Translations under genes and position numbers: made by a program | The notes under the pieces: model-generated | Database searches by the model: none | What the model was told of the DNA's origin: nothing | Seen by the model: the letters and a program-made list of their open reading frames with translations, nothing else | Source: Octopus vulgaris | Lineage: Eukaryota | DNA: 64,000 bases | NCBI GenBank assembly: GCA_951406725.2 | Contig: OX597814.1 | Coordinates: 44,020,001 to 44,084,000 of the forward strand | Direction of reading: 5' to 3' | Shown: piece by piece, positions 501-64,000 of the stretch | Position numbering within the stretch: position 1 is the first letter of the stretch | Layout: each line of letters starts with the position of its first letter

Positions 501-635
501 TCTCATCAAGCGTCCAGTCAAGCAGACCCGATGATGGTATGAGTTTGGCACCATAAACACATTGTGTGGCATTGTTTTATTGAATGCAACGAGTTCTGAG
601 GACCAGATTTCCTTTATTCGGCTGTAATATTCTTT

Positions 636-743
636 TTAGCGAATAAAATAATTTGCTAGGCGAAGTCTTCTTCAGCAGGTACACCTTAGATTAAATATAT
701 ATACACGAAGCAATCCAGTATATGCCCCGTGCTTATACATTCT
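636..743. repeat. Dispersed repeat shared with 57836-57946
   Basis: aataaaataatttgctaggcgaagtct...gcaggtac.ccttagattaaatat.tatacacgaagcaatccagtatat...atacattct occurs at both loci. Confidence 0.85.
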
Positions 744-1465
744 AATCTTTCAAATCTACCACGCAAGCGCATCTCCTTATCGGCAGTAAATAAAAAATGC
801 CGGCTTTTCAATTCGAAATATAAATTAAATAATGAGGGTAGAAATTGATATTAATCAATTAAAATCAGTGGCTTAGCCTATTTTAAGATATCCGAAGATT
901 AAAAATTATATTAAAAATTACCACGAAGAATGAGCTAATCAAGAAAAAATTTCACTACAACGCCAAAATGTAAAAATAAGCAAGACAAATGAAAATATGG
1001 TAATGGCGATTTGACGTCTATATTTAGCGTATTAGGAGTCCACTTTAGTTGTCATTCTTCTTAATTTTGTATAAATATATATGCAGGTATGTATTTGTGA
1101 ATGTGTGTGTGTACGCATATATGTATATATCTTTGGGACATTGATAATAGAAATTTACTCATTACATGAAGAACGAAGAAATATTTAACGCTAATTGTAG
1201 ATTTAGAGTTTTTAAATCCTGACATGAAGTGTCATATTCTGAAATACCGAATAATCGTCAGACGAACATAGAGTTGCTCAAAGCGAATAACGTAGCTTTT
1301 GCTATAAATTGATGACAGTCTTCAGAGACATATATCGTAATGTGTTTATAATTTTCTCAGCTAATAGAGAAGATAATTTGAGACAGTTTATAAATACATG
1401 GATTGTTAAAATTGTGCACCTGCACAATTTTAACACCAACATTCTCGAGCGTACAAAATATATTA

Positions 1466-1505
1466 AGGAGGAGGAGGAGGAGGACAAGAACAGAAGAACA
1501 AGAAC

Positions 1506-1563
<58 letters not shown>

Positions 1564-1615
1564 TGCTGCTGTTGTTGTTGTGGTGGTGGTAGTAGTAGTA
1601 GTTGTTGTTGTGGCG

Positions 1616-1655
<40 letters not shown>

Positions 1656-1659
1656 CAGC

Positions 1660-1734
<75 letters not shown>
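1466..1734. repeat. Compound trinucleotide microsatellite (GAG)n/(AGT)n/(TGT)n
   Basis: Direct reading; explains the poly-S, poly-L and poly-V ORFs. Confidence 0.97.
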
Positions 1735-1735
<1 letters not shown>

Positions 1736-2899
1736 TATTTATAATTACATTTATAACACTCTGACGGGAGTCAGTTGTTCTTAATACCTGACCTCGGTCG
1801 ATAAATATCAAACAGTTTGTGAGTGGTAAGACGCTGGTGTGGAAATCTTAGGCCAGACAGATTTCTTAGCCTTGGCAATAACCTATCTGAAAACAGGGTG
1901 TCAGTAAATCCAGTAACAACTGAGTGATCAGATTTATGTCAAGAGCATGAGGACCGTTTTATCTCTGGATAGTAAACCTCATACAGATGTTGTGCCGAAA
2001 AAAATACTGGCGCAGTGTAACCGTAAAATCAATATTCTGATATAGCAAGTTTCAATATCAGCATAATCGGGTGGGAATTCGGGTAGAAGGAGTTTCCATC
2101 TATTTGTGTTCTGCAGCATAGCAAGGCTAGCTGATCGGCATTCAATTATTGTGGTACAAAAAGCTAATTGCAAAAAGGAAATCAATAAATTAAGCAATAG
2201 AATGTTCTCTAAGAATGGTCAAGCGTAGCGGGGATTCAGAAAAAAAGAACAATGTATGCCAGGTGAAATGATGTGTTTGAATTTAAACACAATGAACAAC
2301 AATTAGAATACCAAACACAGTGGATCAGAGATATCGGGAATAAAAAATATTCCTCTGATTTAGAAATTGGAGAAAAGCAGAGACAGATTAAACTATAAGT
2401 AGCAACACGTCAAAACCAGACTGATGCAATAGCTCTTCTAAGAATCAGGAGGGCATGACTGTTATAGTTGGTGAGGAGATAGAATACCTGCATTTTTAAT
2501 GTGGGCAAGTAGTGTACAACAATGAAGAGAATGTAATGAGAATCGTGTTCTTCGAGGACAAATAGAATTTGTTGCAGTACTGGGAGAGTGATTAATGAAA
2601 CAAGAGGGATATGGTATTAGCCATACTCAAGACAGTTCATGGAATCTAAGTTAAGGAGAAACAGCGCAGTTTATAACATTACCTACGAATTAAGATATCA
2701 GCATATTAGCAGGCAAAATGAAAGTTGCTAAACAGTTGAGAAAAATGAATGAACAAAATAAGTGGATACACATGTGGGACATATTGATTGTAATGACCGT
2801 AGCGTGGCTATAAATGAATTTTTGCTATAGAGAAGTCATGAACACGAGGAAAGTAGTTTAAAGAATATTGGATTAACCCATAAATAATCTCGTTTTTCA

Positions 2900-4050
2900 A
2901 TTGCATGAACTAAAAATCGGAGAGGTATGGGATAAACTACTTGCAACAACTTGCTATAAAACCAGGGACAGCATACAAGATCGAATACTGAAGAAAGCAA
3001 GCTGTTTTGAGGCAACAATTCGGTGAGAAATGTCAGTTTAAAGCAAGTGGAAAATCACACAGAAAAGTTTTGAGGTGAGGTATTCTAAAGCAGTTACTGA
3101 TGTGTGGAAAATGGAAAATAACACGACCAGATGATACCTATGGATATTACCGAAAATGATTTACAATCCTCAAGAAAACTTCCAGACACAAGCAAGAAAA
3201 AAGATTGTATCAAAGCAGTAAGTAGCATTTCACCTAACAAAAGGAAGACCACGCCTCGTAACAACAGACAAACTGAAACTAACAATGTTTCAAAATGCCC
3301 GCCAATTATGTGAAAACCTTCAACATGAACAATAGTGAACATGATATATCAACACCTGCCTGACAAACTCCTAATGGATCATGAGCGGAAATGCTCTCCC
3401 AAACGCATGAGACTATCGGAATCCCAACTAAAGCAGAATCGACTGTTATTTTCTGCAAATTCATAGACGACGTAGAGATCACCTCATGTCATGTAGAAAT
3501 GTATATACTTTCTGGCAAATTTACTGACCAGGTACAAGTCCCTGCAAATGAAATAGTGTTCGTTGTTATTTCTAGCAAATATAATTTATGATCCAGTATT
3601 TTGCGAGCCTCTAAGGAAAGATAATTACGCCATCGACAAACACATTTAGCACAATGAGGGAAAAGGCAAATAGAAATATAGGTCAAATAAATCATTCAAG
3701 GGAACAATTGTGTTCTATTTTGTTAATAATCACACTTATTTCTCTTGGTTATACTAAGTAAAGTAAGGAAGAGTGCCCATTTGAATAAGGGAGAGAAGCT
3801 GTTGATCGTATTTTTGTGAATGCTATAGCAAAGACAAGAATCAACCGGATTCTTTAATGCCAAGCATAAGGATATTTATTAACGACGTTGGGATGAGTTT
3901 CGAAATCAGAAATAAATTTAATAACAAACTCGTAAACTACATCTGGTAGTTGAAATATAAAATGCACATCATACGACATCAGCGGAAAGTTCGCCCATAA
4001 TTCCAAAGGGTATCTGGACGAGTATATTTTGTGCTATAGAGAAGAGAATA
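2900..4050 (+). mobile_element. Possible heavily decayed LTR-retroelement/integrase relic
   Basis: Weak motifs in order: zinc-knuckle-like near 2940, FIDDV near 3460, D.G..F and H..TS..HNSKG integrase-like remnants at 3880-4020; many stops. Confidence 0.25.
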
Positions 4051-4294
4051 ATTGTACAGAACTCTCGAGTCCCTAACCTTGAATTATACGGAAATGTCGA
4101 GACAGAAATTTACAGCCAATGCACTAACATTGAGAACTCGTAAGGAGAAAGTGGACGCTTCATCCATGTGTATCATAAAGTATCTGACGTTTACCTCTGG
4201 GGGAAAATCCCTATGAACGTTTCCTCGAAAATATCTCCCACAATAATTTTTTCCCAGTTATCTATTGTTTATGCCCTCTACCTCTGTCTTTGAT

Positions 4295-4327
<33 letters not shown>

Positions 4328-4360
4328 CTCTTTTTCTTTCTCTCTCTCTCTCTCTATCTG

Positions 4361-4392
<32 letters not shown>
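4295..4392. repeat. (CT)n microsatellite
   Basis: Direct reading. Confidence 0.95.
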
Positions 4393-4394
<2 letters not shown>

Positions 4395-6559
4395 CTCACT
4401 CTCATATGCACTTTTTATCACTTTTTATCTTTTGCTTCTGTCTCAATTCTCTGTTTCCCCATCCAACTTGTTCACCTGGTCGTTATCAGTCTATATAGAA
4501 GGAAATCGGTCCTCAGCTGTGCCTACGCCGTATCTTTGCGCAGTTCTGTGTGCTTCCTGAGCGTACGCAACTGTGTGTATGTTTGCGTGCGCTTGTATGA
4601 TTTTTCTTGATTAATTTAATTTTACGAAGGGCAGTGAAATGCCCAATGCCAACGTGTTTGTATAGGGACGTCCATGGCCATGTAGAACATATGTACAAAT
4701 ATGTTGCATAAATAAATACATTTTTTTCTTGTTGGTAGTAGATCAGAGAACATTAGCTTTTGCATCTTATGGCGGATAAATGAACAAAAACAAAACTTCG
4801 TATTAGGTGGCAATATCTGAAAAATATATTTTATTATTGTCCAACAGTTATTTGCAAACACTTTGTGCAATTCATCTCGCATCTAAGTTTAATCAACATT
4901 TACAAAATATATTTTCGCTTTCCTTTATCGCTTTCGCCACCATCTCCACCATCAGAATTTAAATAATTAGACATGAATACTGGAGAGACATTACATAGAA
5001 TATTGCTGTTATTATGCAATTAAATATTTCGAAGCTTAACTATATGAGCTTCAAATGAGAAGTATTTTAATTATATTTTCGATTTTCTTTCATTGTATTT
5101 CATTTTGATAAATATTAAAGGAAGCTGTTAAAATATATTGCTTTAGAGATATAAATGAATTCGCGTTTCGTGTTTCAGCTGGTAAAAATTAACAACTTTA
5201 ATAACATAGATACACATATGCTGTCCCATTTAAAATTATTTTATGAAAACGTTTGTAATTTCTAAAGTGTACATAAATTCAATTTAAATAATTATATTTG
5301 ATCATTAGAAGCAAGCTGGTTTCATAGTAAAATCTAAATTTAGATTCAACTAACTTTACCTTGGATATTCCACTGTTTATATATATGAAATCTTATGCCA
5401 GATACATCAGTTGTTTAAATTCAATACAAAGCAATGAAATTATGAATTTTCTGTGTGTTATGGGGTTTCACTTCATTAAAATTATTCTGATTTCGTACTA
5501 TAATAAATATGTCCGGTTTATTCTATTAATTATATATTAATGTAGATTTTTCACCAATCTACACCCTTTTCCCTAGAGAATAAAAGTTAGAAATTTCGTA
5601 GCAATTGTTTTATGTACACTGCTGATGGAATTTAATATCTATCATACAGCAACACTTCTCACCAAAGTGAAATATAGCAGTTAAACGTATATATAATATG
5701 CATATACTGTGTACAATATCTCTACAGCGAAACAAGCCACACAACCTTCGATAGTTGGTCAGCATCAGTCTAATTGGCAATTTGCGGACTGTTTTTCCGA
5801 AAGTGTGTATGCAAAAAAAGTCACAGCTCGAAATTAATGCTCTTAGAAGAGTGTGATATTTAATTCCATACGACCTTAGTCACAAGTGTCGATTGCATTC
5901 AAATGGGAAATGACGCTCTATTATGCAAGTAGCTGGAACCGGACCACTCCATTATCAAAAGGTTCACACATATTGAACACATTTTAGAATTTATAGGCGT
6001 TGAGAAACGTGATTGAGATACGCTTCTAATTTTCTTTATAAAAAATGTGTTATGCTGTATTTTATGTATAATACTTTTAATTTTCTTAACCCAATTATTT
6101 TCCTCAATTCAAAGATGTAGAGACTATAAAATTCTACTGACTGGTTTCCTCTGAGCTGTTACGGGCAAATTATATTGCAAGTAGAAACGTTATATGATTT
6201 CAAATGCAGATGTACCTTATCCATATGGAAATTAGTAATAAATCATTATTTCATCACAGAATCATGCCCTTTTTTCTCTTTGGAAATATTAATCGTTATA
6301 TATATTTTTAAAACATTTATCTACACTATGTGAACCGTAAATGAGATGTAGATACCAAACGCGTACCGGTGTTTTAAGTTATCTGTTATTTTCTAATTGT
6401 TTTCATTAAGTTATTTTTTGCCAACATCTTTATTAATTTTATCATTATGATTTTATGCATAACTATGTTCATAGCATAATTACAAAGAAAGGGTATGTTA
6501 CATTAGGAAAGTGTACATAAGACGCAGAAGTGGCTGTGTGGTAAGTAGCTTGCTAACCA

Positions 6560-8786
6560 GACATGCGCAGTTAGTCGGTTGCTTCTTGTTGAGCTAGAGC
6601 GGACGTGAGTAACAAGCTCTGTCCAACTAAAGAAAAAAGACCAAAAACGGAAAGTTGTCGAGGTAAGTGATTTTGTTTATTGTGAGTTGGGCATAATTTA
6701 TTGCGTGCCAATTATTATTTCAGTAGGTTGTGTCCAACTCTGAGACAATTTCGCCTGCGCTAGGCGGCTGCCGTTTTTGTGTTCATTGAAAAAAAAAAGA
6801 AAAAACAGTGGAGGGGCGTATACTCAGGATTCAATACAGTTACTGTTAAAATTACCGTTGGCAGTAACCAGTGCTGTGTTTGAGTTTGCTGAATTTATTC
6901 CCTTGTCAGAGTACTTCGCAAGAAAAGTATAAAAATAAGCCACTATTGGATTACCTTTCGGACCCATTTTTGTGGAGGTTGTGTTGCAGTTGCGGCGTTC
7001 AAGGTTCAACCCAGGCCGGGAGTACCGCAGAATATTTTTGCTGTGTTTTTTCTGTTTATTAACTTTCTTTTGAACTTCATTTACCCCCCCCCTTTGTTTT
7101 TTCTTTATTGCGACTTTCCGTTAATTTCTTCCCTTCTGTTGTGCTTTCTCCTTTTTGTTTTTTCAAAAATCTATCAAATTTATTTAGACTTTTGAACTTT
7201 TTTCTTCCTGCTTTTGAGTCTAATTTGAATATATTTTTTAAAAAACATGGCAATGAAAAATAACAAAGTTTTGGAGTGGGAAATCATACCACCCAAAAAG
7301 TGGTTGAAGGACCGTGAAGATAGGACGGTGGTGTTGAGAACCTACTCCAAGGCACTTGACACCATCGCCCTATTCGAAAAGACGGCAATTGAGGAGGAGT
7401 TGGAGGAGTATTTGCCAACAATTAAATTCATTTCCAGGGGTGTCAAATATGGAACGGTGTGGTTGCTGTTTGACACCCCTGAAGAGGCTTGCAAATTTGC
7501 TAGCGAACCCTTGGAGGGTAAGGAAATCTTATTCCTGCCCACTTACAAAAAAAAGAAATTAATGAAAGCTTGGATCTGCGGACTGCCACCCGACATAGAA
7601 CCCGAGTGGATAGAGGAGACTATCCGCCGGGGTCTGGGTGACAGCGAAACTAAGCTCCTCAATGTAAAAGTTCTTCCTGCGGCTGCTTGGGTTGGCTCGA
7701 AAGCAGTTTTGACCCTGTGGACCCAATCAGCCAATCTGGTTTTTCCAGATTTTTTGAAAATGGCCGGGTGCAGGTACCCGGTGATGCTTGAGGGTCGCCC
7801 CCCTAAGTGTTATCGGTGCTTGGAGTCCGGCCACATAAAGAAGAACTGTCCTCGGGAACAAAATAGGATCCCGGAACAGTTAAGTAAAACCCCTCTAGAA
7901 GAGGGAACGATAACGGCCGAGAAAGCAGAGGACTCCTCAAGCAGAGGCCGAAAGAGGAAGGTGAGCAACAATGGGTGCTCACCAAAGGATAATAGGGATG
8001 AGGAGAGGAGGGCGAATCTTCCAGCCACGGAGGAGACGCACCCTCCCTCAGTTGAAAAGGGAAAAAAAGAAAAAGAGGAAGAAAAACGGGACGTTGCCGG
8101 CTGTCAGTGTGGCACCGGAATGTCGCGGAACTACGTCGGTTGGGGTTGTGCCACCGACAAGAGAAGGAATACCGTTGGCGGAAACTGTGCCGCCAACGAA
8201 AGAACTGAATGTATTGGTCCTCTTCTATAGAGGAGGAGAAATTGAAAAAGTGATGGAAGAGCACTACAAGGGAGCACCTTTAGCCTTCACACAGGACCCC
8301 GAATGGCCTCCGCAGGTAGCTGTGGAGGCCGTGGCGTTCGACGTGACGCTAGGGCTAAAGGAGCTCAATGAAGACTATAACTTGGTCCCGGGCGATGCGA
8401 ACTCGGAACTTGACTACGCTCTGAGGGAGGCGTGGTTGATGGTGGAGGGCGCGGGCACAAGCTATTTCGAGGACGATATGTATTATTAGTAATGGACTTA
8501 AGTCCAAAAATTGAAAAATTGTAAGAGGATTAATACCTCGTTTTGTATTAATAATGGACTACTAAGCCCAAAATTGGGAAAAATTGTAAGAGGTTTAATA
8601 CCTCGTTTTGTGTTAATCTTTTTAAAAAGAACAATGTTTTAGAGAAGCAAAAGTCGGCGGGCGCTTTCTGTCTTCTCCCATCCTTATCATCTTTCTTTCA
8701 TTATCATTCACCTCATTAATGTCCTCGTCCAGCCCGCAAAGCTAACTTAATCTGTGTACTGCCTTTATGGCAAATGTTTTGAAATA
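6560..8786 (+). mobile_element. ORF1-only non-autonomous Tx1/L1-like retroelement with 17-bp TSD
   Basis: aagtagcttgctaacca is duplicated at 6543-6559 and 8787-8803; about 690-bp leader, one gag-like ORF, short 3' UTR ending in AATAAA; no endonuclease or RT sequence. Confidence 0.85.
7247..8489 (+). CDS. ORF1p/gag-like nucleic-acid-binding protein with CCHC zinc knuckle; probable +1 frameshift near 8060-8085 joins ORFs 7247-8230 and 7971-8489
   Basis: PVMLEGRPPKCYRCLESGHIKKNC (CX2CX4HX4C), RRM-like AWICGLPPDI segment, basic low-complexity linker; the same context occurs in the ORF1 remnant at 19007-19075. Confidence 0.8.
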
Positions 8787-8935
8787 AAGTAGCTTGCTAA
8801 CCAACCACATGGTTCCGGGTTCAGTCCCACTGCGTGGCATCTTGGGCAAGTGTCTTCTGCTATAGCCCCGGGCCGACCAATGCCTTGTGAGGGGATTTCG
8901 TAGACGGAAACTGAAAGAAGCCTGTCGTATATATG

Positions 8936-8966
<31 letters not shown>

Positions 8967-9311
8967 TTGTATGTCTGTGTTTGTCCCCCTAGCATTGCTT
9001 GACAACCGATGCTGATGTGTTTACGTCCCGTTACTTAGCGGTTCGGCAAAGTAAACCGATATAATGAGTACTGGGCTTACAAAGAATAAGTCCCGGGGTC
9101 GATTTGCTCGACTAAAGGCGGTGCTCCAACATGGCCACAGTCAAATGACTGAAACAAGTGAAAAGAATAAAAAAAAAAAAGAGAAAAGGGAGTATAAAAC
9201 AATTGCTACGTAATTTCTGACTTTTACTCTATAGAGAAACGGATGTAGATTGGTAAGAAATCTACATTAACGTATAATTAATAGAATAAAACGGACATAC
9301 GTCTTACCACA

Positions 9312-9478
9312 TAGGCAATGGCGTGGCTATGCGGTTAGAAGCTTGCTTCCCAACCACATGGTTCTGGGTTCAGTCCCACTGGATATCAACTTGGGCAAGC
9401 GTAATTTTACTATAGCATTGGGCTGCCCAATGCCTTGTGAGTGGTCTTGGTAGACAGACACTATAAGAAGCCTGTCAA
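9312..9478 (+). mobile_element. SINE family A, diverged 5' half
   Basis: tggctatgcggttagaagcttgcttcccaaccacatggttctgggttcagtccc...gccttgtgagtgg. Confidence 0.85.
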
Positions 9479-9494
9479 ACACGTGTGATCATCC

Positions 9495-9657
9495 AGGCGC
9501 AGGAGTGGCTGCGTAGTAAGTAGCTTGCTTACCAACCACATGGTACCGGGTTCAGTCCCACTGCGTGACACCTTGGGCAAGTGACTCCTACTATAGCCTC
9601 GGGCCGACCAAAGCCTTGTGAGTGGATTTGGTAGACGGAAACTGAAAGAAGCCCATC

Positions 9658-18599: not shown

Positions 18600-18800
18600 A
18601 GTAATACGTACAGTTTTCTCTCACGTCCTGAGAAAGAGGTCCCAGCACGAGGCATCCTGTTCGCGTATGGCTTAGCACTCAAAGCCACCGCAGAGGTTCA
18701 GTTGCAGCAGAGCATGAACCGTTTGTCCACTGTCTGGAACAATTTTGCCCTCATCAACAGTACTCAGGTAACAGAAGTTGTGCACCAACCTATGTGGAAT
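18600..18800 (+). mobile_element. RTE-clade RT fragment
   Basis: RGILFAYGLALKATAEVQLQQSMNRLSTVWNNFALINSTQVTEVVHQP resembles the RTE LLFADDCAL...FGLTISTKKTEVMHQP block. Confidence 0.75.
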
Positions 18801-18899
18801 CAACTATCACTATCGAAAGGAAAACTCTGAATGGTGATATACATATACTTGTTCGGTTTTAAGTTGTTGATTTCTATTTCTTTCTCACACTTACATGAA

Positions 18900-21140
18900 A
18901 GAGATCTGCCGGCGAAGCAGGAACTTTATAACACCTGCGAAGCAGTGAGTTTATGACAATGAAAACTAAACTCAATTGGTCAGATGAGTGGTGAAAATAT
19001 GGCATTGTGTTTGTGGAGAGACGAAAACCATGGTGCTTGCAATGCGGCCAGCTGGGGCATATCTGCTTTGAATGCAAAGAAGGAGAGGAAGAGGAGGTGG
19101 AAGAAAGAGAGAAGGAAGAAAGCCAGAAAGAAAACCAGATAGGAAGTAAAAGGTAAATATTCCAGACAATACCAGCTAAAACGGTGCCTGCAGATAAGAG
19201 GCCGAAAAAAACAGCTAAGAGAAAGAATAAAAGAGAGGTTTAGCAGCATTTAATACAGAGGACAAGGAGTTGCTGAGAGAATTAGATTTGAAGAAGACAG
19301 TGGAAAGGGTACGTGAACACTCAGACAAGTGTGAAAATTACAAATCTACGATATATATTTAAAACCTCATAAAATCCTGGAGAATAGATTCAGGTAAACT
19401 GTTGGGACAATGAGAAAAGACTTTCATCCTTCCATTTTTAACGACCTACCGGCTCTGATCCTGTGAGCGAGATAAAAAGAAGAGGTGGAGATACTACAGA
19501 ATAACTAAGGTAGCACATTATGCTATTCGTATCGGTTGTGTAAATATACGTGGATTGATGTCGAGCTGGAAGCAAGGGCGCTTCCTAAATGACATCAGGT
19601 CACGAGATTTAGATGTAATTGTTGCTACAGAAACACGGTTGACTGGACCGAGATATCTGCTCCCTCTGCTGAACGACTACGTGTCGGGTGCAGGTGGGGG
19701 TGGGGTGTTGGTCCTTTGGTAACGGAACCGGGTTTCAGAGAAAAAGTTGACTTTTTTTCTGATCCAGACTTGACATTTAGTGGTGGTAAGTCGATCAGGC
19801 TGGTTGCTATTGATTGTTGCACCCAACATTATCGGTCAACAAAGTGAATATTTTCGTGACCTAGAGTAATTTCTTGTTACGTCGATGGTTTAGTGTTGCT
19901 AGGATAATTTAATACAATCTGCGATGCACGCGTGGATTGTGTTGTCTCGACATCGAATAGAACAAGAAATTTTGTCTTCCGGGATCAGCTAATTCGTTTT
20001 CAATTAGCAGATACATATTGGCTGGAATACACGTCCGCTCCTTTGTGCACATAGTCAAGCAGCGATGTGTCGTCCAGATCGTGTATAGATAGGAAATCTA
20101 ATTAGAAAAATAGAAAAAAAGCATAGTTAAGTATCCACAGTTTTATCCAGTCAGCTACATTGACCACAAGATAGTCAACTTTACGCTGAGTTGGTGCTTT
20201 CGTAGATAAAGACTGAATGACTGGCATACGGAGTGCCGTAAGGGTCGCCTGCTCTTCTGTCGCTCAGTGCTGCCAGCGGTGGGAGTTTCACAGCATTTTT
20301 CTTTAGAGGGTTGGTAGAGGCTGAATGCGACGATGGTCTGGCGAAGTCTCTGGGTCATGGATTTATTCAGCTTGAAAGAATGTTCTTTTCCTACGTTCGG
20401 GCTCAGGACGCTAGATAACTTCCAAAAGTCCTTGACTTGGCAATGTTCCAGAAATGCCTTGCCTGTCTGGGATAAGCTGGCAAGACATGGTCAATGCGAC
20501 TCTCCAACCTGCACAAGATGTAAGGGAGAATGGGAAACCGACCAGCACGCTGTTGTCCAATTTCCGAAGGTGTGGTAGATGTGGGCTTATACAGAACACC
20601 TTGTTGTCTGGTACGGGGGGCATACAGCTATCGACTGAGTCAATCATAAAAATTGACCCGCCCGACTTTTGTCAAATTAAGGTAAGAATTGTTTTCTCAT
20701 CGTAGTAGCAATATAGAAAGAGGTGGCATGGAAGACGAGGATGAAAGGAGTAAAGATAGGCAGCTTCGTCTCTGGCCTTGGCTTACAAAGGTATTTTGAT
20801 TTTCATTTGCAAAATAAAAGTAGGGCTGGAGAGAAGCTGCCTGTCAAAGAAATGGTTTAATGAAAGGTGGAAATATGTAGCACGGAGGTCGCGAGTGGTT
20901 GTAGCCGAATGAATAGGCCATAATGAGTCTTAAAATGTATCAGAGGTGGTTGGGGCTCGCGGGGTCGGAGCTAAACCCAAGTACCTCTCCATTTGTTGTG
21001 TCTTTTGTGTTGTTTACTTTCATTCGATAAATATTATAAATGTCAATTTTTAGACGCATTTTATTGTAAAAGTATTCGTACATCTGACCCCATATTGTAT
21101 TGTCCCTATCTATGTTGGCCCCTAGTGGACAATAAAGAAA
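18900..21140 (+). mobile_element. Tx1/L1-clade element, decayed: ORF1 knuckle, APE endonuclease and C-terminal zinc finger, RT deleted
   Basis: VERRKPWCLQCGQLGHICFEC (19007-19075); IRIGCVNIRGL...DVIVATETRL (19526-19640); IDR and DHK motifs; then DNFQKSLTWQC..CTRCKGEWETDQHAVVQ; 3' AATAAA at about 21131. Confidence 0.82.
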
Positions 21141-21149
21141 TTCACTCGT

Positions 21150-22270
21150 TTCCCGAACGCGGTAAGAATGCCAAGACTGACATAAAATCGGCAGGAGCAA
21201 GCCATCGTACGTCTCCATGCAGGTCAATGTCCACAGGTCATTGCTAATGACTTGAACTGCAGTATTCGAACAACCGAGCGACTGAGGGAAAGAAACAATG
21301 CCACAAACAACACAGATGTTCGTCCACTCACTGGCCGATCGCGGGTTACAACGGCACGTCAATATCGCCACCTGCGTTGACAGCACTTGCAGGACCGATC
21401 CCGGAGGACAACGGAATAAGCGAGGTCGAGTTTAGGGACTCACCGCAGACCTATTTCAGCAGAGACAGTTCGCCGCCGGCTGAAATCACTCAATCTCTTA
21501 TGTCGACGTCTGGCTAACAACCCCATTCTTACAGATCGTCACTGACGGGCACGTCTGCAGGGGGCTCCAAAATGTCAGAACTGGCGATGTCAGTATCTTC
21601 TCTGACAAAAGTCGATATTGCACTTCTGTGGCAGATGACAGAGCTAGGGTTTGGAGAAAGGGTCAGCGTCATGCCGATGGCAGTGTGATGGACAGAGACT
21701 CATGGGGAGGATGGAGCATCATGGTATGGGGTAGGATTGCACTCAAACAGAAACCTGGACCGTTGGTCTTCCAAAACATCAGCCAAGGCCGGGGCGGTGA
21801 AGTAACCGCTGTTCGCTACATAGACCAAACGTTGTGTCATATTTCACCCGTCATAGGAATCACGTTTCCCAACAAGAGAACTCCCGTGCCCATATTGCCA
21901 GGTTGAAAACAGACTTCCTCCAGCAACACAAGATCCAGACAATGACTTGAACCCTATAGGGCACTTGTGGGAGGAAATCCAAAGAAGGGTAAATGACATC
22001 CGTCCAAGTCTGACAACTGCAGCACAATTCACTACAAGTTTTAACAGTGTGGGCTGTTATTCCCATGGCTTTCATCAATCGTTTGATGCATTCATTGTAC
22101 AGAAAATGCCTGGGGGTAATCAACGCTAATGGTGGTCAAATTGGATATTGAGTTCACTTTTTTGGATCCAAGACACTCCGTCATTAAGTGACACCATGTG
22201 ACGTCAAACATGTTTCAGAAAATGAGGTGTTATCATTAGGAAAGAACTATTTCTTAACTAGCTCTTTTCA
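21150..22270 (+). mobile_element. Tc1-like DNA transposon, degenerate transposase
   Basis: ISAETVRRRL, FSDKSRY, RVWRKGQR, GGWSIMVWG and LNPIGHLWEEIQRRV motifs. Confidence 0.85.
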
Positions 22271-23764: not shown

Positions 23765-24015
23765 CTCTTACCTGTTTCAGTTAGTAAAGCCGCGGCCATG
23801 CTGGGGCAACGCCTTGGGAATTTTCACTATTTTTGCGCCTGAAACCGCTAAGTTACGGGGACGTATAATATATATATATATATATATAAGACATCGACGA
23901 CAAAAGCCACTGGCAAGGCTTCGCCGACGACCGAAACTACAGTACTAGACTCTTGCCAAAAGTATCATGCAGTTGACCTGAACCTGGGACTACGTGATTG
24001 GGAAACAAACTTACT
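23765..24015 (-). mobile_element. SINE family A remnants
   Basis: gtttcag...gcggccatgctggggcaacgcc (3' end) and tgaacctgggactacgtgattgggaaacaaactt (head). Confidence 0.6.
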
Positions 24016-24129
24016 ACACAGGTGCATACATTACGTATATATATATATTAAATACATAAGCATGTATATAAATCACGTCATGTATGGTACGCCTGCAGCG
24101 CATTGACGACACAACAACAAGTGTCTCCT

Positions 24130-29205: not shown

Positions 29206-30202
29206 CGAGGGACGTTCAATAAGTAATGCCCCTAACCCACTTGCAGTTGTTTTATCTAGCTGAAATTGTGCATGTGCAATCATTTATATCTCTATAGAGT
29301 AAGTGACAAATTACAGCTCTGAATTAATTGTGGTTTTTGATTTACAGGTGTTTGAACCGAGTCAAGTGTGAAATGGAGCCTGTTAAGTGTCGAGCAGTGA
29401 TACGGTTTTTGTATTTGAAAGGACGCACACCACGGGAGACTTTTGATGAAATGAAAGTAACTTATGGTGATGATGTCCCATCATATGACCTTGTAAAACG
29501 CTGGCATCGTGAATTGAAACATGGTCGGAACGCTGTGAAAACAGCTCCCAGATCTGGTCGCCCATTCTGCCATTGATGAGACGTCTGTCCGTCAAGTTGA
29601 GGCTGCCATTTTGGAAGATCGACGCATAATTATTCGCCAAATAGCCCATGAGGTCAAGATTAGTACCGGGTCTGTGGAAACAGGATGAATTTGGAGATGT
29701 GCCAAGAATATGAGTCAAAATTTTTCAAAAGACTGATTACACAGGATGAAACCTGGGTCCATCACGATGATCCAGAGACCAAAGCCCAGTCAATGCAGTG
29801 GAAGCACCGTGACTCACCCCCTCCAAAGAAGGCAAGGGTGCAGCCCTCCGCTGGCAAGGTCATGCTCACAGTTTTCTGGGACAAGGACGGAGTTGTGATG
29901 ACAGATTTCTTGGCAAAGGGTACCACAATTGCAGTTGCCTATTATGCTTCACTTTTGACGAAATTAAGAGAAGTTATCAAAATCAAGAGGCGGGGCAAGA
30001 TCAGCAAAGGCATCCTCCTCCTGCAGGACAACGCTCCGGTCCACAACTCACTTGTCGCCAGATCAGAAGCACAGGCGTATGGCTATGAACTCCTCCCCCA
30101 TCCCCCTACTTTCCTGACCTTGCACCTTCTGATTTTCACCTCTTCCCAGTCATGAAGTTGTTTTAGCTGCATCAAGGGGCATTACTTATTGAACGCCCCT
30201 CG
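29206..30202 (+). mobile_element. mariner transposon with both TIRs and TA TSD, internally deleted
   Basis: ta|cgagggacgttcaataagtaatgcccc ... ggggcattacttattgaacgcccctcg|ta; transposase pieces include the HTH, ITQDETWVHH and LLQDNAPVH. Confidence 0.95.
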
Positions 30203-40419: not shown

Positions 40420-41135
40420 CTATCCAGTTATAAATACCTGGAACTACTTGATGCAGATGGAATCAGAGACAAAAACATGAAAGTAAAAGACAAATAAAGA
40501 GTTCCTTCGGCGAGTGAGGAAAATATTGGCTTCATATCTGAATGCCAGAAACATAATTTCGGCAATAAACTAGCGCGCAGTAACAGTAGTTCAGTAAGGC
40601 GCTGGAAACCTGAAGTCGATTGAGGAGGAGGGAAAAAGAGATAGACAGGAAATGAAGAAATCTCGTAATGATGCATGGAGCCCATCAGAAGACTGCGTGA
40701 CTATCGAACTCGAGAGCTTAATGAGATACCTAGTCCAAAATATGAAAACCTTGCTTGTGACAGTTAGGAACGAGGGAGTATTGAAAGCAGGGAAAATGGA
40801 AGAAGTACCAATAGATCATGAAGAATTACGCAAGAATAGACTACACAATCAATTCCATATAACCACAATAGAAGTTATTGGAATAAGTGGAATTAGCTGA
40901 TAAAAAGGACACTATAAAAAGAGGCCGAGGGCGCTATAGTGGCAGCGCATGACCAAGCTATCGCCATGCACTGGAGGGTCAACCTTAGGAATGAGCAGGT
41001 GTCACCTCTGTGCTGCATCTGCAATAGAGTGGATGAAACCATTGTCCATATCACGAATGCGCTAGACTTGCCCAAAACCGCTACAAGTTTTGGCGACACG
41101 ATCAGGTAGCGAAAGCACTACATTAGGGGTTTTAC
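40420..41135 (+). mobile_element. R4/Dong-type 3' coding fragment, degenerate
   Basis: YKYLELLDADGIRD, LHNQF, EAEGAIVAAHDQAI and CCICNRVDETIVHI motifs. Confidence 0.75.
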
Positions 41136-41139
41136 ATAT

Positions 41140-42600
41140 AATGAATTGATAAAATAATTAAATAAGTAACACAAATGTAATTATACACAGTATATAATGA
41201 AAAGGAAAAGAAATATAAACAGTATATAAAAGTTTAACGAAAAAGGGGGGAGATAGAGATGTAGCCCTCCTGACAGAGGATGACGTCTAGGGATAATCGA
41301 GAAATCCAACCCGGGGTTTCCCCGAACACCAAGAACAAGTGCCCTCTCAAGTTCTTTCTCTCCGACTCACAGGTCTACACTTAGAAAAGTAACATCCATT
41401 CGTGCCATTTTCGCAACTTTCACCCACCTTTCAATAAACTCACTCGAGGACAGTACTTATTTCTCCACCCTCAATTTCCTTTGCAAGTGAAACTTGAAGA
41501 AGTTAAGGAGACCTCTACGAAAGAGGAATATATGTCTTCATGCCTTTCGGCTTTGTTCACCAAACAACTTCATTCGCCACAGCCACGAGCCAACTGAAAA
41601 CTGCCTTGTCTGCCCTATTGAAGAAGGGCAGCGAGGCATCAACACTAAAGACGGATCCGTCTCACAAGTGACAGCAGCTGTTCGACATAACCCCACAAGT
41701 CAGTAATGCCCGGTCACTGAACGAGAGCGTGCAAAACGATTTCGTCACTCTGCATGCAACTCGGACAAGCCCATCTGACAACACATCTGTGCCTGTAGAC
41801 TTTATCTCGAACTGGCGCCCACCCCCAGTAGCACTGCCAGGCCAAGGACATCAAGAAATTATCCATGATAGTTTCCGACCGGAGCAGACTAGCCAGTTCA
41901 TTCTCGTCAGCGCCCAGAGTCTCTCCGAGACCATCACACTTTCCCGCTACTAATCGTCTATGAATTTCTAAAGCAGAACATCCATCGATCCCATTGCCCG
42001 AATGGTAGAGGGCTGTGAGTGCCTGACGCCATTCTAGGTGCCAGGCGCCCAATCTCGGTCTTTTCTTCGCCCAGGACTGCAGCTTTATCAAGGAGATGAG
42101 CTGCGGAAAGACGAGCCTCACAGACGGAGCCTACACGCACTCACCGTCCAGAAACTTTTGGTGGTGACGAAAGGAACCACGGCATACCTAATCCGCCACT
42201 CAGAGGATGCTGGCAACGAACTGACCGAATGATCATTGGAACGCGTCACGTCCATAAGAATTTAAATAAGAGACGCCCCAAACTGGTCAAGGCATGACGG
42301 TCATACGATAAACGATAACGGAGGGGATGTAGACATTTATCACCTCTGCCCAACATTTCAGGAACAACTTCCTCTCAGGCCATTTCTGGGTGAGACTGGT
42401 TACTCTGTACTCCACCTCGCCTCAGTTGTTATCTACATGAAGGTCGGGACCAAACCAGACCTCGAGCAGTTTAACTGGTCCGTCGGTCTAACGTCCGATG
42501 AAGCCATCCGATGGCATCGACCTGCCTCTTCAGGAGCCCAAGCGCAACCCACCGATTTGTCGGCGTTGATTTTGGCCCTGCAACCGGCTCTTATTCCTAC
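41140..42600 (-). mobile_element. Tx1/L1-clade LINE, 5'-truncated (end of RT, zinc finger, 3' UTR)
   Basis: AKINADKSVGLRLGS...VKLLEVWFGPD and MDNFLMSLAWQCY..PVRDKVYRH..CPSC..EIVLHALVQ; same family type as 18900-21140. Confidence 0.85.
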
Positions 42601-42607
42601 TTTAATG

Positions 42608-42679
<72 letters not shown>

Positions 42680-44744
42680 GCCTGGATAGACTATAAAAAG
42701 GTTTTTGATAGCCTACCACATAGCTGGATTAGGAAATGCCTGGAAATGTATAAGATAGCACCTACTCTGCGAAACGTTTTGACTGTAAGTATGAGAGCAT
42801 GGAGAACCACACTAAGTCTGAACAGTGACAATGAATCCCTAGATGCTGGTGATGTAAAAATTTCGTGTGGCATTTTCCAGGGTGACTCACTGTCACCACT
42901 CCTCTTTTGTTTAGCCTTAATACCTCTCTCAAAACTGCTCAATGACGCGCAGTACGGGTATAAAATGTTTGATAAATATATAAACCATCTCATTTACATG
43001 GATGATTTAAAGCTTTTTGCAAAACATTACCAACAATTCAAGGTCTTACTAGCGATAGTCAAACAATTCAGTAACGACATCAGAATGCAATTCGGCCTCG
43101 ATAAATGTGCAAAAGCTACCTTTATAAAATGAAAAATGACAGAAACATCTAACGTTAACCTTGACCAGCAGAATATCATAAAAGAACTAGACCCAGCGGA
43201 GAGCTACAAATACCTAGGGGTAATTGAAGGGAACGGAATAAGGCATTCAGAGATGAAGGAAAGGATCAGGAGAGAATGCTATCAAAGAGTGAGAGCAACA
43301 CTCAAGACAGAGCTGAATGCAAGAAACAGGATCGAAGCGATCAATGCATTAGCCATACCAGTCGTGACTTACAGTTTCAATATCGTTAACTGGTCAGTTA
43401 CTGAAATATGTCAGCTCGATAGAAAAATAAGAAAACTGTTGACAATGCATAGAATGCACCACCCTAAGGCAGATACAGAACGACTTTATCTGCCAAGAAA
43501 AGAGGAAGGACGTGGTCTTTTGCAACTGGCAATAACAATGAAGATTGCTACAATTGGCATAGACACCTACGTGAAAAACTCTGAGGACTGGATGTTAAAA
43601 CTTGTCTCAAAACATGAAAAGAAGAAAGCATCATACTCAGTAACAAAACAGGCAAAGGAATATCTAAGTGAATTCCGAATACAACCAATTTCGGAATTAG
43701 AGATAAACATACAAGAAACAAGCACAGAAAAAGCTAGGCGCATGAAAACCCGTGCCAAAACTGCGGCCTTAGATATTCTGAATAATAAATGGCAAGAAAA
43801 ACTTCTCTATGGCAAATACCCAAAGAGAGCGAATAATGCAGATATTGACAAAGCCCTGACCCATCAATGGCTAATGGCCTCTGGCTTAAAATCTGAAACA
43901 GAAGGGTTTATCATAGCAGCTCAAGATCAATGCCAACCAACAAGAAACTACCAGGCCAACATATTAAAGAACGGCAGTAGCCCAACATGTCGTGTATGCC
44001 CACAACAAAATGAAACCATTGATCATGTTGTCTCCAATGCAGTCTTCTAGCGCCTACAGATTACCTCAGCAGGCATGATAGAGCTGCACAATATATTCAC
44101 TGGGTAATTTGCAAAAACCTGGATTTGTCCCATGAAAAAAGCTGGTGGGAACACAATCCACCTCCAGTGCTTGAAAATGACCACATCTCACTCCTCTGGA
44201 ACTTCACCATCCAAACTGACAGAAAGATAGATGCAAATAGGCCAGAGATCATATTGAAATACTTCAGACAATGAACATGCCTCCTCATTGATATGACTCT
44301 CCCAATCGATATAAACGTATCTGTCAAGACCTACCAAAAACTGAGCAAATATAAAGATCTTGAAATAGAAATCAGCAAAATGTGGAACCTGAAGACTAAA
44401 ACAATACCTGTTGTCATAGGTGCCCTGGAAATGATAGCGAAAGGGGCTGATTGCTACCTAACTCAGATACCAGGAAACCCCAAAATGGCAGAAATTCAAA
44501 AGATAGTACTCATGGGAACTGTTCATATCCTACGCAAAATACTCTCTATGTAATCCCAAGGTTTAAAACAAACTTTTTTTTTTAAATTTATGTATTAGAC
44601 ATTCACTAGTACAACACTAAAAAAAACCAAATATATGGCACACTAGGCATAACAACAACGTGAACTTCCAACCTGTTGTCTCTTGAGGTCTCTGGGTGAG
44701 ACTTGGAGCCAAATTGTACAGACATAAAGCAAAAGTCAAACATA

Positions 44745-57229: not shown

Positions 57230-57448
57230 TTTTACTCTTTTACTTGTTTCAGTCATTTGACTGTGGCCATGCTGGAGCACCGCCTTTAGTCGAGCAAATC
57301 GACCCCGAGATTTATTCTTTGTAAGCCCAGCACTTATTCTATCGGTCTCTTTTGCCGAAACGCTAAGTAACGGGGACGTAAACACACCAGCATCGGTTGT
57401 CAAGCGATGTTGGGGGGGACAAACACAGACACACAAACATACACACAC

Positions 57449-57481
<33 letters not shown>

Positions 57482-57653
57482 CGACGGGCTTCTTTCAGTT
57501 TCCGTCTACCAAATCCACTCACAAGGCTTTGGTCGGCCCGAGACTATAGTAGAAGACACTTGCCCAAGGTGTCAAGGTGCCAGGCAGTGGGACTGAACCC
57601 GGAACCGTGTGGTTGGTAAGCAAGCTACTTACCACACAGCCACTCCTGTGCCT
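57230..57653 (-). mobile_element. SINE family A, full length
   Basis: Reverse complement of the 9495-9985 structure. Confidence 0.93.
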
Positions 57654-60486: not shown

Positions 60487-61423
60487 AAAAACCTCTCTAT
60501 GGCAAATACCCAAAGAGAGCGAATAATGCAGATATTGACAAAGCCCTGACCCATCAATGGCTAATGGCCTCTGGCTTAAAATCTGAAACAGAAGGGTTTA
60601 TCATAGCAGCTCAAGATCAATGCCTACAAACATGCCAACATATTAAAGAACGGCAGTAGCCCAACATGTCGTGTATGCCGACAACAAAATGAAGCCATTG
60701 ATCATGTTGTCTCCAAATGCAGTCTTCTAGCGCCTACAGAGTACCTCAACAGGCATGATAGAGCTGCACAATATATTCACTGGGTATTTTGCAAAAACCT
60801 GGATTTGCCCCATGAAAAAAACTGGTGGGAACGAAATCCACCTCCAGTGCTTGAAAATGACCACATCTCACTCCTCTGGAATTTCACCATTCAAACTGAC
60901 AAAGATAGATGCAAATAAGCCAGACATCATATTGAAAGACTTCAGACAAAGAACAATGCCTCCTCATTGATATGACTGTCCCAATCGATATAAACGTATC
61001 TGTCAAGACCTACCAAAAACTGAGCAAATATAAAGATCTTGAAATAGAAATCAGCAAAATGTGGTACCTGAAGACTAAAACAATACCTGTTGTCATAGGT
61101 GCCCTGGGAATGATAGCGAAAGGAGCTGATTGCTACCTAACTCAGATACCAGGAAACCCCAAAATGGCAGAAATTCAAAAGATAGTGCTCATGGGAACTG
61201 CTCATATCCTACGCAAAATACTCTCTATGTAATCCCAAGTTTTAAAACAAACTTTTTTTAAAATTTATGTATTAGACATTCACTAGTACAACACCAAAAA
61301 AAAAAACAAATATATGGCACACTAGGCATAACAACAACGTGAACTTCCAGCCTGTTATCTCTTGAGGTCTCTGGGTGAGACTTGGAGCCAACTTGTACAG
61401 ACATAAAGCAAAAATCAAACATA

Positions 61424-62844: not shown

Positions 62845-64000
62845 CGAGGGGCGTTCAATAAGTAATGCCCCTGACCCACTTCCCATAGCAGTAGAGCAAC
62901 GACACTTGGCACAGTTATTAGTCTTTTCCTACATAGGAACTACTCAGAGTTATGCATTTCTCCCATGGTTTGATACAGCTCTGGATACCGTTTTTGTAGA
63001 AGACCCCAGCTTGGTCCTCCAATCACGACGTGACTTCAGAAATCAAGGCTGTATCATCTGGGAAACGCTTTCCTTTCAAAATCAACTTCATGGCTGGGAA
63101 GAGGTGAAAATCAGAGGGTGCAAGGGGAGGAGTTCATAGCTGCACGCCTGTGCTTCTGATCTGGCGACACGAGAGTTGTGGACCGGAGCGTTGTCCTGCA
63201 GGAGGAGGATGCCTTTGCTGATCTTGCCCCGCCTCTTGATTTTGATAGCTTCTTTTAATTTCCTCAAAAGTGGAGCATAATAGGCTTCTGTAATTGTGGT
63301 ACCCTTTGCCAGGAAATCTGTCATCACTACTCCGCCCTGGTCCCAGAAGACTGTGAGCATAACCTTGTCAGCGGAGGGCTGCACCCTTGCCTTCTTTGGA
63401 GGAGGTGAGTCATGGTGCTTTCACTGCATTGACTGGGCTTTGGTCTATGGATCATAGTGATGGACCCAGGTTTTATCCTGTGTTATCACTCTTTTGAAAA
63501 ATTTTGACTCATCTTCTTGGCACACCTCCAAATTCATCCTCGAGCACTCAACGCGTTCTTGCTTCTGGAAAGGTGTGAGCAACCTGGAAATCCATCTGGC
63601 AGACACCTTTTGCATATGCAAATGGTCATGAATGATAGTTTCCACAGACCCGGTACTAATCTTGACCTTATGGGCTATTTGGCGAATAGTTATGCGTTGA
63701 CCTTCCAAAATGGCAGCCTCAACTTGACGGACAGACGTCTCATCAACGGCAGAAGGGGGCGACCAGATCTGGGAGCTGTTTCCACAGAGTTCCGACTATG
63801 TTTGAATTCACAATGCCAGCGTTTTACAAGGTCATATGATGGGGCATAATCACCATAAGTTACTTTCATTTCATCAAAAGTCTCCCGTGGTGTGCGTCCT
63901 TTCAAATACAAAAACCAGATCACTGCTCGACACTCAACAGGCTCCATTTCACACTTGACTCAGTTCAAACATCTGTAAATCAGAAACCACAATTAGTTCA
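62845..64000 (-). mobile_element. mariner transposon, same family as 29206-30202, runs off the window end
   Basis: TIR ta|cgaggggcgttcaataagtaatgcccc; MEPVECRAVI, VSARWI, ITQDKTWVHHYDP and LLQDNAPVH motifs; frameshifted. Confidence 0.95.

Follow-up and report, generated by a model that had tools for sequence, protein, structure and literature searches.

The DNA analyzed here is a 64,000-nt stretch of the Octopus vulgaris genome (assembly GCA_951406725.2, contig OX597814.1, positions 44,020,001 to 44,084,000 of the forward strand; below called the window and numbered from its first letter). It contains a 2,227-bp insert, apparently a retroelement whose only protein is of the LINE (long interspersed element) open reading frame 1 (ORF1) type. 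The insert breaks a tRNA-like short interspersed element (SINE) in its head, between an A-box-like and a B-box-like word, which we take to be such by their match to the box consensus (Table 1). It is enclosed by two identical 17-nt sequences that can be extended in neither direction. The SINE parts on the left and right of the insert, joined in register, give a continuous SINE, which shares 88.6% identity with the copy at 57230 to 57648 in an alignment of 420 columns. Both copies of the duplication carry GCTAACCA, whereas GCTTACCA is found in the intact SINEs located at 9518 (+) and 57630 (-). None of the five other SINE heads aligned in the window has this AA form, and the duplication is therefore derived from this very site. 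Among the 14 exact repeats of at least 17 nt that lie no more than 6 kb apart in the window (low-complexity repeats omitted), this is the only pair that splits an element. Thus, the perfect 17-bp target-site duplication (TSD) around an insert in the tRNA head of a SINE, as well as its variant letters relative to intact SINEs, which the initial annotation had proposed, were both confirmed.

No tRNA identity was obtained for the SINE head: ARAGORN made no call at default settings and only unstable Ser and Thr calls at relaxed thresholds, and a search against Rfam returned only microsatellite noise. According to the available text of PMC4824008, three tRNA-derived octopus SINE families are credited to Ohshima and Okada (1994), and the split SINE may be one of them. 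A sister family of SINEs, whose head reads GCTTCCCA, is found at 9320 to 9480 and 23864 to 24021 and supplies the commonest loose-end consensus in the read contigs.

TABLE 1 Features of the split SINE, the insert, and the LINE remnants in the window
Feature	Position	Strand	Basis or remark
5' part of split tRNA-like SINE head, with A-box-like TGGCTGTGTGG at 6531-6541	6520..6559	+	87.5% to intact head at 9495
Left copy of 17-bp TSD	6543..6559	+	
5' untranslated region (UTR) of element, 687 nt, with presumed internal promoter	6560..7246	+	Multicopy depth; promoter presumed
ORF1 first frame, 327 amino acids: RNA recognition motif 1 (RRM1), 14-103; RRM2, 104-183; CCHC knuckle, 188-201; low-complexity linker	7247..8230	+	Pfam zf-CCHC, AlphaFold, fold matches
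+1 frame with C-terminal part of ORF1, coding from ~8060-8190	7971..8489	+	Silent differences
A/G-rich tract, likely place of +1 frameshift in window copy	8056..8088	+	Both frames open across tract; place probable
Tandem duplication, ~62-72 nt, 87.5% alike, at start of 3' UTR	8484..8617	+	Units 8484-8552 and 8546-8617
3' UTR, 297 nt, ends AATA	8490..8786	+	Sequence
Right copy of 17-bp TSD	8787..8803	+	
Remaining SINE: B-box-like GGTTCAGTCCC at 8818-8828, body, (TA)n, 3' part	8804..9175	+	End approximate
L1/Tx1-like remnant: ORF1 knuckle, endonuclease start, C-terminal zinc finger, ~1 kb between last two	18600-21140	+	
3' part of another L1/Tx1-like LINE	41140-42200	-	zf-RVT, E = 0.015

No endonuclease, reverse transcriptase (RT), long terminal repeat (LTR), or terminal inverted repeat (TIR) was detected in the insert, and Pfam searches with its two long frames gave zf-CCHC only. 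An identity as an LTR element, a TIR element, or a DNA transposon was ruled out, as there are neither terminal repeats nor a transposase. The initial annotation had described a leader, one CCHC-knuckle ORF, and a 3' UTR ending at AATAAA, with neither ORF2 functions nor terminal repeats. The last part holds; however, a +1 frameshift interrupts the ORF, and AATAAA (8783 to 8788) shares two letters with the right copy of the TSD. The 5' UTR contains no ATG-initiated ORF of 50 or more amino acids. Right before the ORF1 start, at 7150 to 7246, long pyrimidine tracts followed by AG resemble a splice acceptor, and a contig from sequencing run X2 is unspliced there. The insert has no poly(A) tail at its 3' end, and no stable fold or 3' stem-loop was predicted in 8620 to 8790 (z = +0.43).

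The only repeat within the insert is the tandem duplication at the start of the 3' UTR, and family members with a single unit exist (joint 8522 to 8579, depth 1822, in run X12). The unit overlaps the ORF1 stop and holds TAATG and a short frame, one reading of which, KIVRGL, presumably bears a faint resemblance to the start of a LINE endonuclease. The unit may be the scar of an ORF2 deletion, but this likeness is probably due to chance.

By its predicted fold, the encoded protein is a type I LINE ORF1 protein (RRM-RRM-CCHC; the ORF1 types are set out in the available part of PMC5203782). The AlphaFold model, based on 36 sequences, has a predicted local distance difference test score (pLDDT) of ~90 over amino acids 11 to 200, and structure comparison found RRM folds twice (Z scores, 7 to 9.6), with tandem-RRM proteins among the matches. 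In the Atlas, CCHC proteins and ZCCHC3-type RBD1/RBD2 clusters were matched at 0.91 to 0.93. None of the 36 aligned proteins matched Transposase_22. When the search was widened, 73 proteins had E values of ≤0.001, and named Octopus proteins made up 7 of the 10 clusters that were looked up. No loci were found in the metagenome, viral, and prokaryote-genome contig collections. A processed pseudogene of a ZCCHC3-like host gene was ruled out by the many-copy depth (see below) and by the more than 70 diverse repeat-type relatives.

The two close relatives are gene models of Octopus sinensis, P0001 (64%) and the chimeric P0002; protein identity to the O. sinensis relative is 64 to 73%. In a tree of 24 of the 36 aligned rows (12 short rows omitted), the window ORF1 and P0001 pair on a long stem (1.82 versus a median end branch of 0.62). 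In these two, the first RRM strand is preceded by 12 residues, compared to 43 to 294 in 19 of the 22 others. P0001 ends directly after the A/G tract, and P0002 fuses 69 ORF1 residues to an integrase-like piece. A second long-branch ORF1 lineage (stem, 1.68) is formed by P0004 and P0074 to P0076, all four of which lie on Logan contigs of 1,849 to 1,930 nt; this is possibly another ORF1-only family of ~1.9 kb.

Four sequencing runs (X1, X2, X9, and X12, of which X1, X9, and X12 are deep DNA runs and X2 is possibly from RNA) were compared over 6250 to 8900. These data are at contig level and comprise the listed 32 of 392,462 pieces, 24 of 1,874 loose ends, and 15 of 514 joints. Of 24 listed runs, 20 contain the insert at least in part; they come from 9 studies and carry three organism codes, and none of them is recorded as an RNA run. 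Contigs of the single-locus flanks have a depth of 47 to 53; in the three DNA runs, all 24 bins inside the insert reach 43 to 6,016 times this value, a ratio of summed contig depth and not a copy number. Single contigs within the insert attain depths of 1,400 to 3,900, which corresponds to ~30 to 80 near-identical copies, and we estimate the total at tens to several hundred. It is thus virtually certain that the insert belongs to a many-copy family.

The ORF1-only form is probably the unit of this family. A 2,083-nt contig of run X2 (record 17) aligns unbroken with 6550 to 8614, continuing past the stop of ORF1 into the 3' UTR; it has 12 differing letters and 20 gap letters and is the only listed piece that spans this junction. 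The peak depths of ORF1 and the 3' UTR, although a noisy measure, are alike in each DNA run (5,336 and 6,016, 1,051 and 1,123, and 2,293 and 2,855, respectively), unlike those expected of a long LINE with mostly 5'-truncated copies. At 6867, 7309, 7357, 7405, 7452, 7543, and 7941, the window and record 17 of X2 share minority letters with depths of 600 to 7,800 in X1 and 0 to 306 in X9 and X12, suggesting that they belong to a young sub-lineage. The many-copy depth, the ORF1-type protein, and at least one more ORF2-less sequence are in line with the multicopy family with its own ORF1 protein that had been suggested before.

Alternatively, the element could be an ordinary two-ORF L1/Tx1 family, in which the window copy (and record 17 of X2) represents a one-off or a small sub-lineage without ORF2. 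The bin directly after the ORF1 stop (8475 to 8563) is the lowest of the 24 in X1 and lies below both of its neighbors in X9 and X12. Such a dip fits indel variation and also a point where some copies continue into ORF2. In addition, record 17 of X2 could be an allele of the window locus, since it differs from the window by 0.6%, which is less than the difference between the flank alleles (2 to 3 in 294). Internal deletions do occur in this region, as in the LINE remnant at 18900 with its endonuclease start and C-terminal zinc finger within ~1 kb, and the 13 active O. vulgaris L1-Tx1 families average ~5.4 kb per copy, as computed from Table 1 in the available part of PMC13282606. However, contigs with depths of 1,407 to 2,383 cover position 8498, 9 nt past the stop, in all three DNA runs; comparable dips are seen elsewhere (e.g., in X9 at 6962 to 7050); and the similar ORF1 and 3' UTR depths speak against this explanation, as does, weakly, the absence of a fused ORF1-ORF2 protein among 6,915 candidates in the searched size range of 1,508 to 4,305 amino acids. 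We consider a two-ORF family unlikely.

The differences among copies point to purifying selection on ORF1. Silent-site counts were based on the 24 coding rows among the 40 listed of 194 differences; the read comparison skipped the A/G tract and dropped one gap row there. In the part encoding the RRMs and the knuckle, 9 of the 13 listed differences are silent against an expected share of 0.22 to 0.28 (P = 0.0003 to 0.002), and in the +1 frame, 8190 to 8486 has 5 silent differences out of 7 (P = 0.007 to 0.02), compared to 0 of 4 in the linker. The folded parts together have 14 silent differences out of 20, a count in which ORF2-less and ORF2-bearing carriers are not distinguishable. Selection across copies, which the initial annotation had suggested examining, is thus reflected by mostly silent differences in both halves of ORF1.

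The silent bias in 8190 to 8486 also argues that the genuine C-terminal part of ORF1 is encoded in the +1 frame and that the window copy is therefore frameshifted, probably in the A/G tract. The full protein would then have roughly 410 amino acids. The frameshift may be a postinsertion mutation or an assembly error, which are indistinguishable; a programmed -1 frameshift at the tract was ruled out because the frame needed is +1. The C-terminal part had no match in Pfam or the Atlas, no longer homologue among 57 candidates, and no match to the C termini of the relatives, and it folded as a single sequence with a pLDDT of 38.

Three contig-level hints make it fairly probable that the element prefers this SINE site. 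First, a 160-nt single-locus contig of X1 (record 8; depth, 65) aligns as a whole and without gaps with 8732 to 8891, with 24 differing letters, and consists of 55 nt of the element, the duplication, and 88 nt of the SINE. Intact SINEs placed in the same register have 39 to 46 mismatches in those 55 nt, and none of the 127,889 other window positions has 24 or fewer. This contig, the only one of the 32 listed pieces that crosses the 3' junction, is no allele of the window locus because it is 15% diverged. Second, record 17 of X2 is identical to the window over 6550 to 6559, the final 10 nt of the left TSD copy; its first 22 letters are unaligned. Third, an X12 contig with the family majority letter at 6586 starts at 6553 or earlier, provided that the row offset equals the distance to the end of the aligned piece, as it does in the five rows where this can be checked. 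For comparison, a family is called target specific when more than 20% of its flanks are of one sequence type (available text of PMC4494074). The targeting between the A and B boxes, proposed in the initial annotation as a possibility, is now backed by at least one other copy that is diverged and occupies the same nucleotide of the SINE.

The same junctions could also arise in an ORF1-only family that has no target preference, if the SINE is merely abundant and the other hints are due to chance or to alleles. There are six SINE heads in the 64 kb of the window, and SINEs account for 11.6% of the O. vulgaris genome according to the available part of PMC13282606. On the basis of these six heads, the chance that a second copy occupies the same nucleotide and strand is 0.001 to 0.03 for 20 to 600 copies and increases to 0.25 for an extreme 6,200; a coincidence is thus conceivable at ~6,000 copies, and record 17 of X2 is possibly allelic. 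However, record 8 of X1 is in exact register in spite of its divergence, and the X12 row represents a further copy. The chance of two more copies at this site is 0.0004 for 600 copies and 0.035 for 6,200. The absence of any preference appears distinctly unlikely.

All three hints would also fit descent from a single old insertion, after which a composite unit (SINE head, insert, and SINE body) spread by read-through retrotransposition or segmental duplication. The window and record 17 of X2 have the rare AA form in common, and with no poly(A) at the end of the insert, transcripts may continue into the SINE tail. The presence of a perfect duplication together with a relative that is 15% diverged is less easily reconciled with this explanation, and the first 22 letters of record 17 do not align with the SINE head of the window. 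In X9 and X12, the locus flank and the SINE head are present, yet the sub-lineage letters at 6863, 6867, 7309, and 7941 have no depth, a weak hint that the SINE came first, given that contigs drop rare variants. We regard such a composite as very unlikely.

As for the source of ORF2, the initial annotation had pointed to the LINE families with remnants at 18900 and 41140, a suggestion that was not supported. Their UTRs share only chance matches of 9 to 29 nt with the insert, only the knuckle of the 18900 remnant fits the ORF1 profile, and neither remnant is located in a SINE head. The profile of the ORF1 relatives fits the knuckle at ~19000 with an E value of 3e-5, and the frame that follows is endonuclease-like (a weak match to L1 endonuclease; E = 1.5) and leads to a C-terminal zinc finger. 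This ties the ORF1 type to LINEs of the L1/Tx1 group. The RT domain of that remnant is deleted, as only ~1 kb separates the endonuclease start from the zinc finger. The remnants are evidence that LINEs of this kind are present in the genome but not that this element is mobilized by them. Of the 80 L1-Tx1 families of O. vulgaris, 13 were recently active (available part of PMC13282606), and donor candidates therefore exist.

Membership in Tx1 rather than in another lineage of the L1 group is suggested by the ORF1 type, the duplication length, and the missing tail and not by an RT tree. To our knowledge, the type I ORF1 is not unique to Tx1. The type I ORF1s of nonmammalian animals are consistent with Tx1, according to the available text of PMC5203782.

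Other elements surround these remnants in the window. The 3' UTR of the remnant at 18600 to 21140 ends near an AATAAA at ~21132, beside a frame (21484 to 21903) that has no Pfam match and that we presume to be Tc1-like. The 41140 to 42200 remnant is nested between plus-strand LINE pieces (zf-RVT at 40903 to 41130 and long frames at 42266 to 44047). Two mariner-like copies in opposite orientations (29320 to 30152 and 63115 to 64000) are 92 to 94% alike (Transposase_1; E = 1e-22), and two LINE 3' parts (44036 to 44576 and 60716 to 61255), each followed by a trinucleotide run, are 95 to 98% alike and represent a recently active family.

Taken together, we interpret the insert as a young copy, apparently of full length, from an octopus LINE family that is non-autonomous, has many copies, belongs to the L1/Tx1 group, and shows a site preference, with a probability of about 0.55. 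Its unit of ~2.2 kb would consist of a 5' UTR, one ORF1, and a 3' UTR and would be transcribed from its own 5' UTR. Its ORF1 protein, with two RRMs and a zinc knuckle, would coat and pack the element RNA in cis, as suggested by HAL1 and HeT-A, and the ORF2 protein of a putative autonomous L1/Tx1 family would nick the target and reverse transcribe the RNA in trans. The length of the duplication suggests staggered nicks 17 nt apart. The endonuclease of the partner would set the site and prefer the anticodon-arm region of the tRNA-like SINE head. As this target is present in very many copies, insertions would rarely harm genes. In the absence of poly(A), priming might occur by the terminal AA overlap or by read-through into the target. 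These analogies are drawn from HAL1 and from target-specific Tx1 families (available parts of PMC5753468, PMC3627910, PMC5786205, PMC4494074, and PMC3706591).

Several points weigh against this interpretation: the depth dip after the ORF1 stop, with its possible continuation into ORF2; the possible allelism of record 17 of X2; the fit of the three junction hints to descent of a composite unit; the ORF1 of the window copy, which is not intact; and the ORF2 donor, none having been found and the local remnants being mismatched. Furthermore, the listed joints and loose ends are almost all from SINEs, so that an ORF2 junction or a non-SINE flank would not show among them.

A stricter version of the proposal, to which we subscribe only tentatively, is a long-lived Tx1-derived ORF1-only octopus lineage that relies on an unseen autonomous partner and specifically targets one nucleotide of the SINE tRNA head. 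This would be a three-tier parasite system, whose borrowed endonuclease had switched from tRNA-like sequences to a SINE with some hundred thousand copies. Each insertion should silence its SINE because the A and B boxes become separated.

If the proposal is true, a Tx1-type ORF1-only LINE in a mollusc would demonstrate that this strategy arises wherever LINEs have an ORF1. For Tx1-type endonucleases, the SINE head would represent a new class of targets and a "safe harbor" far larger than ribosomal RNA or small nuclear RNA (snRNA) arrays; the proposal also predicts an autonomous partner, as yet undescribed, whose endonuclease is sequence specific. For annotation, it matters that gene models of O. 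sinensis (P0001 and P0002) present the ORF1 of this family as host genes. The general understanding of retrotransposition is unchanged by the finding.

Repbase reportedly holds mollusc Tx1 families that are inserted in tRNA genes. No Tx1-derived ORF1-only family and no SINE-targeting Tx1 was found in the literature covered; Repbase, Dfam, the Zenodo library of PMC13282606, and most subscription papers were outside this scope and may hold the family. While ORF1-only LINEs are already known, this lineage and its SINE-head target appear to be undescribed.

Target-specific Tx1 families likewise enter other repeats or multicopy RNA genes. According to the available parts of PMC4494074 and PMC3706591, they include Tx1 of Xenopus (in Tx1D), Tx1-Mar (in Mariner-N4_AMi), Tx1-9_AMi (in Harbinger), Tx1-8_Crp and Tx1-4_AMi (in LTR elements), Keno (U2), Kibi and Koshi (microsatellites), Mutsu (5S), and Dewa (tRNA-Leu spacer). 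These families are autonomous, however, and a SINE head is not named as a target in those parts. SINEU-3 of crocodilians is also similar, being a non-autonomous passenger with the same target as a Tx1 family; this target is itself a transposon (available part of PMC4494074), and the duplication in Mariner-N4 is 16 nt long (PMC4494074 and PMC3706591, as available). SINEU-3 differs in being noncoding, snRNA derived, and short and in having a DNA-transposon target. Dada DNA transposons target tRNA genes as well, some at the A box (available part of PMC3706591), but they are DDE transposons with 6-bp duplications and an unrelated mechanism.

Among the non-autonomous LINEs that retain ORF1, the available text of PMC5786205 lists members of Jockey (HeT-A), L1, and CR1 (Ag-Sponge) and none from Tx1. 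HeT-A, which is site restricted to telomeres (available part of PMC5537684), and Ag-Sponge are likewise ORF1-only elements but differ in clade and host. Mammalian HAL1 is non-autonomous, encodes only an ORF1 protein that is under selection, and needs the ORF2 protein in trans (PMC5753468 and PMC3627910, as available). The octopus element is also ORF1-only, with a silent-site bias in its ORF1. However, HAL1 is derived from mammalian L1 and has a type II (Transposase_22) ORF1, whereas the octopus element has a type I ORF1, resides in a mollusc, lacks poly(A), and appears to be site biased. Thus, the element would work like HAL1, yet it is no HAL1.

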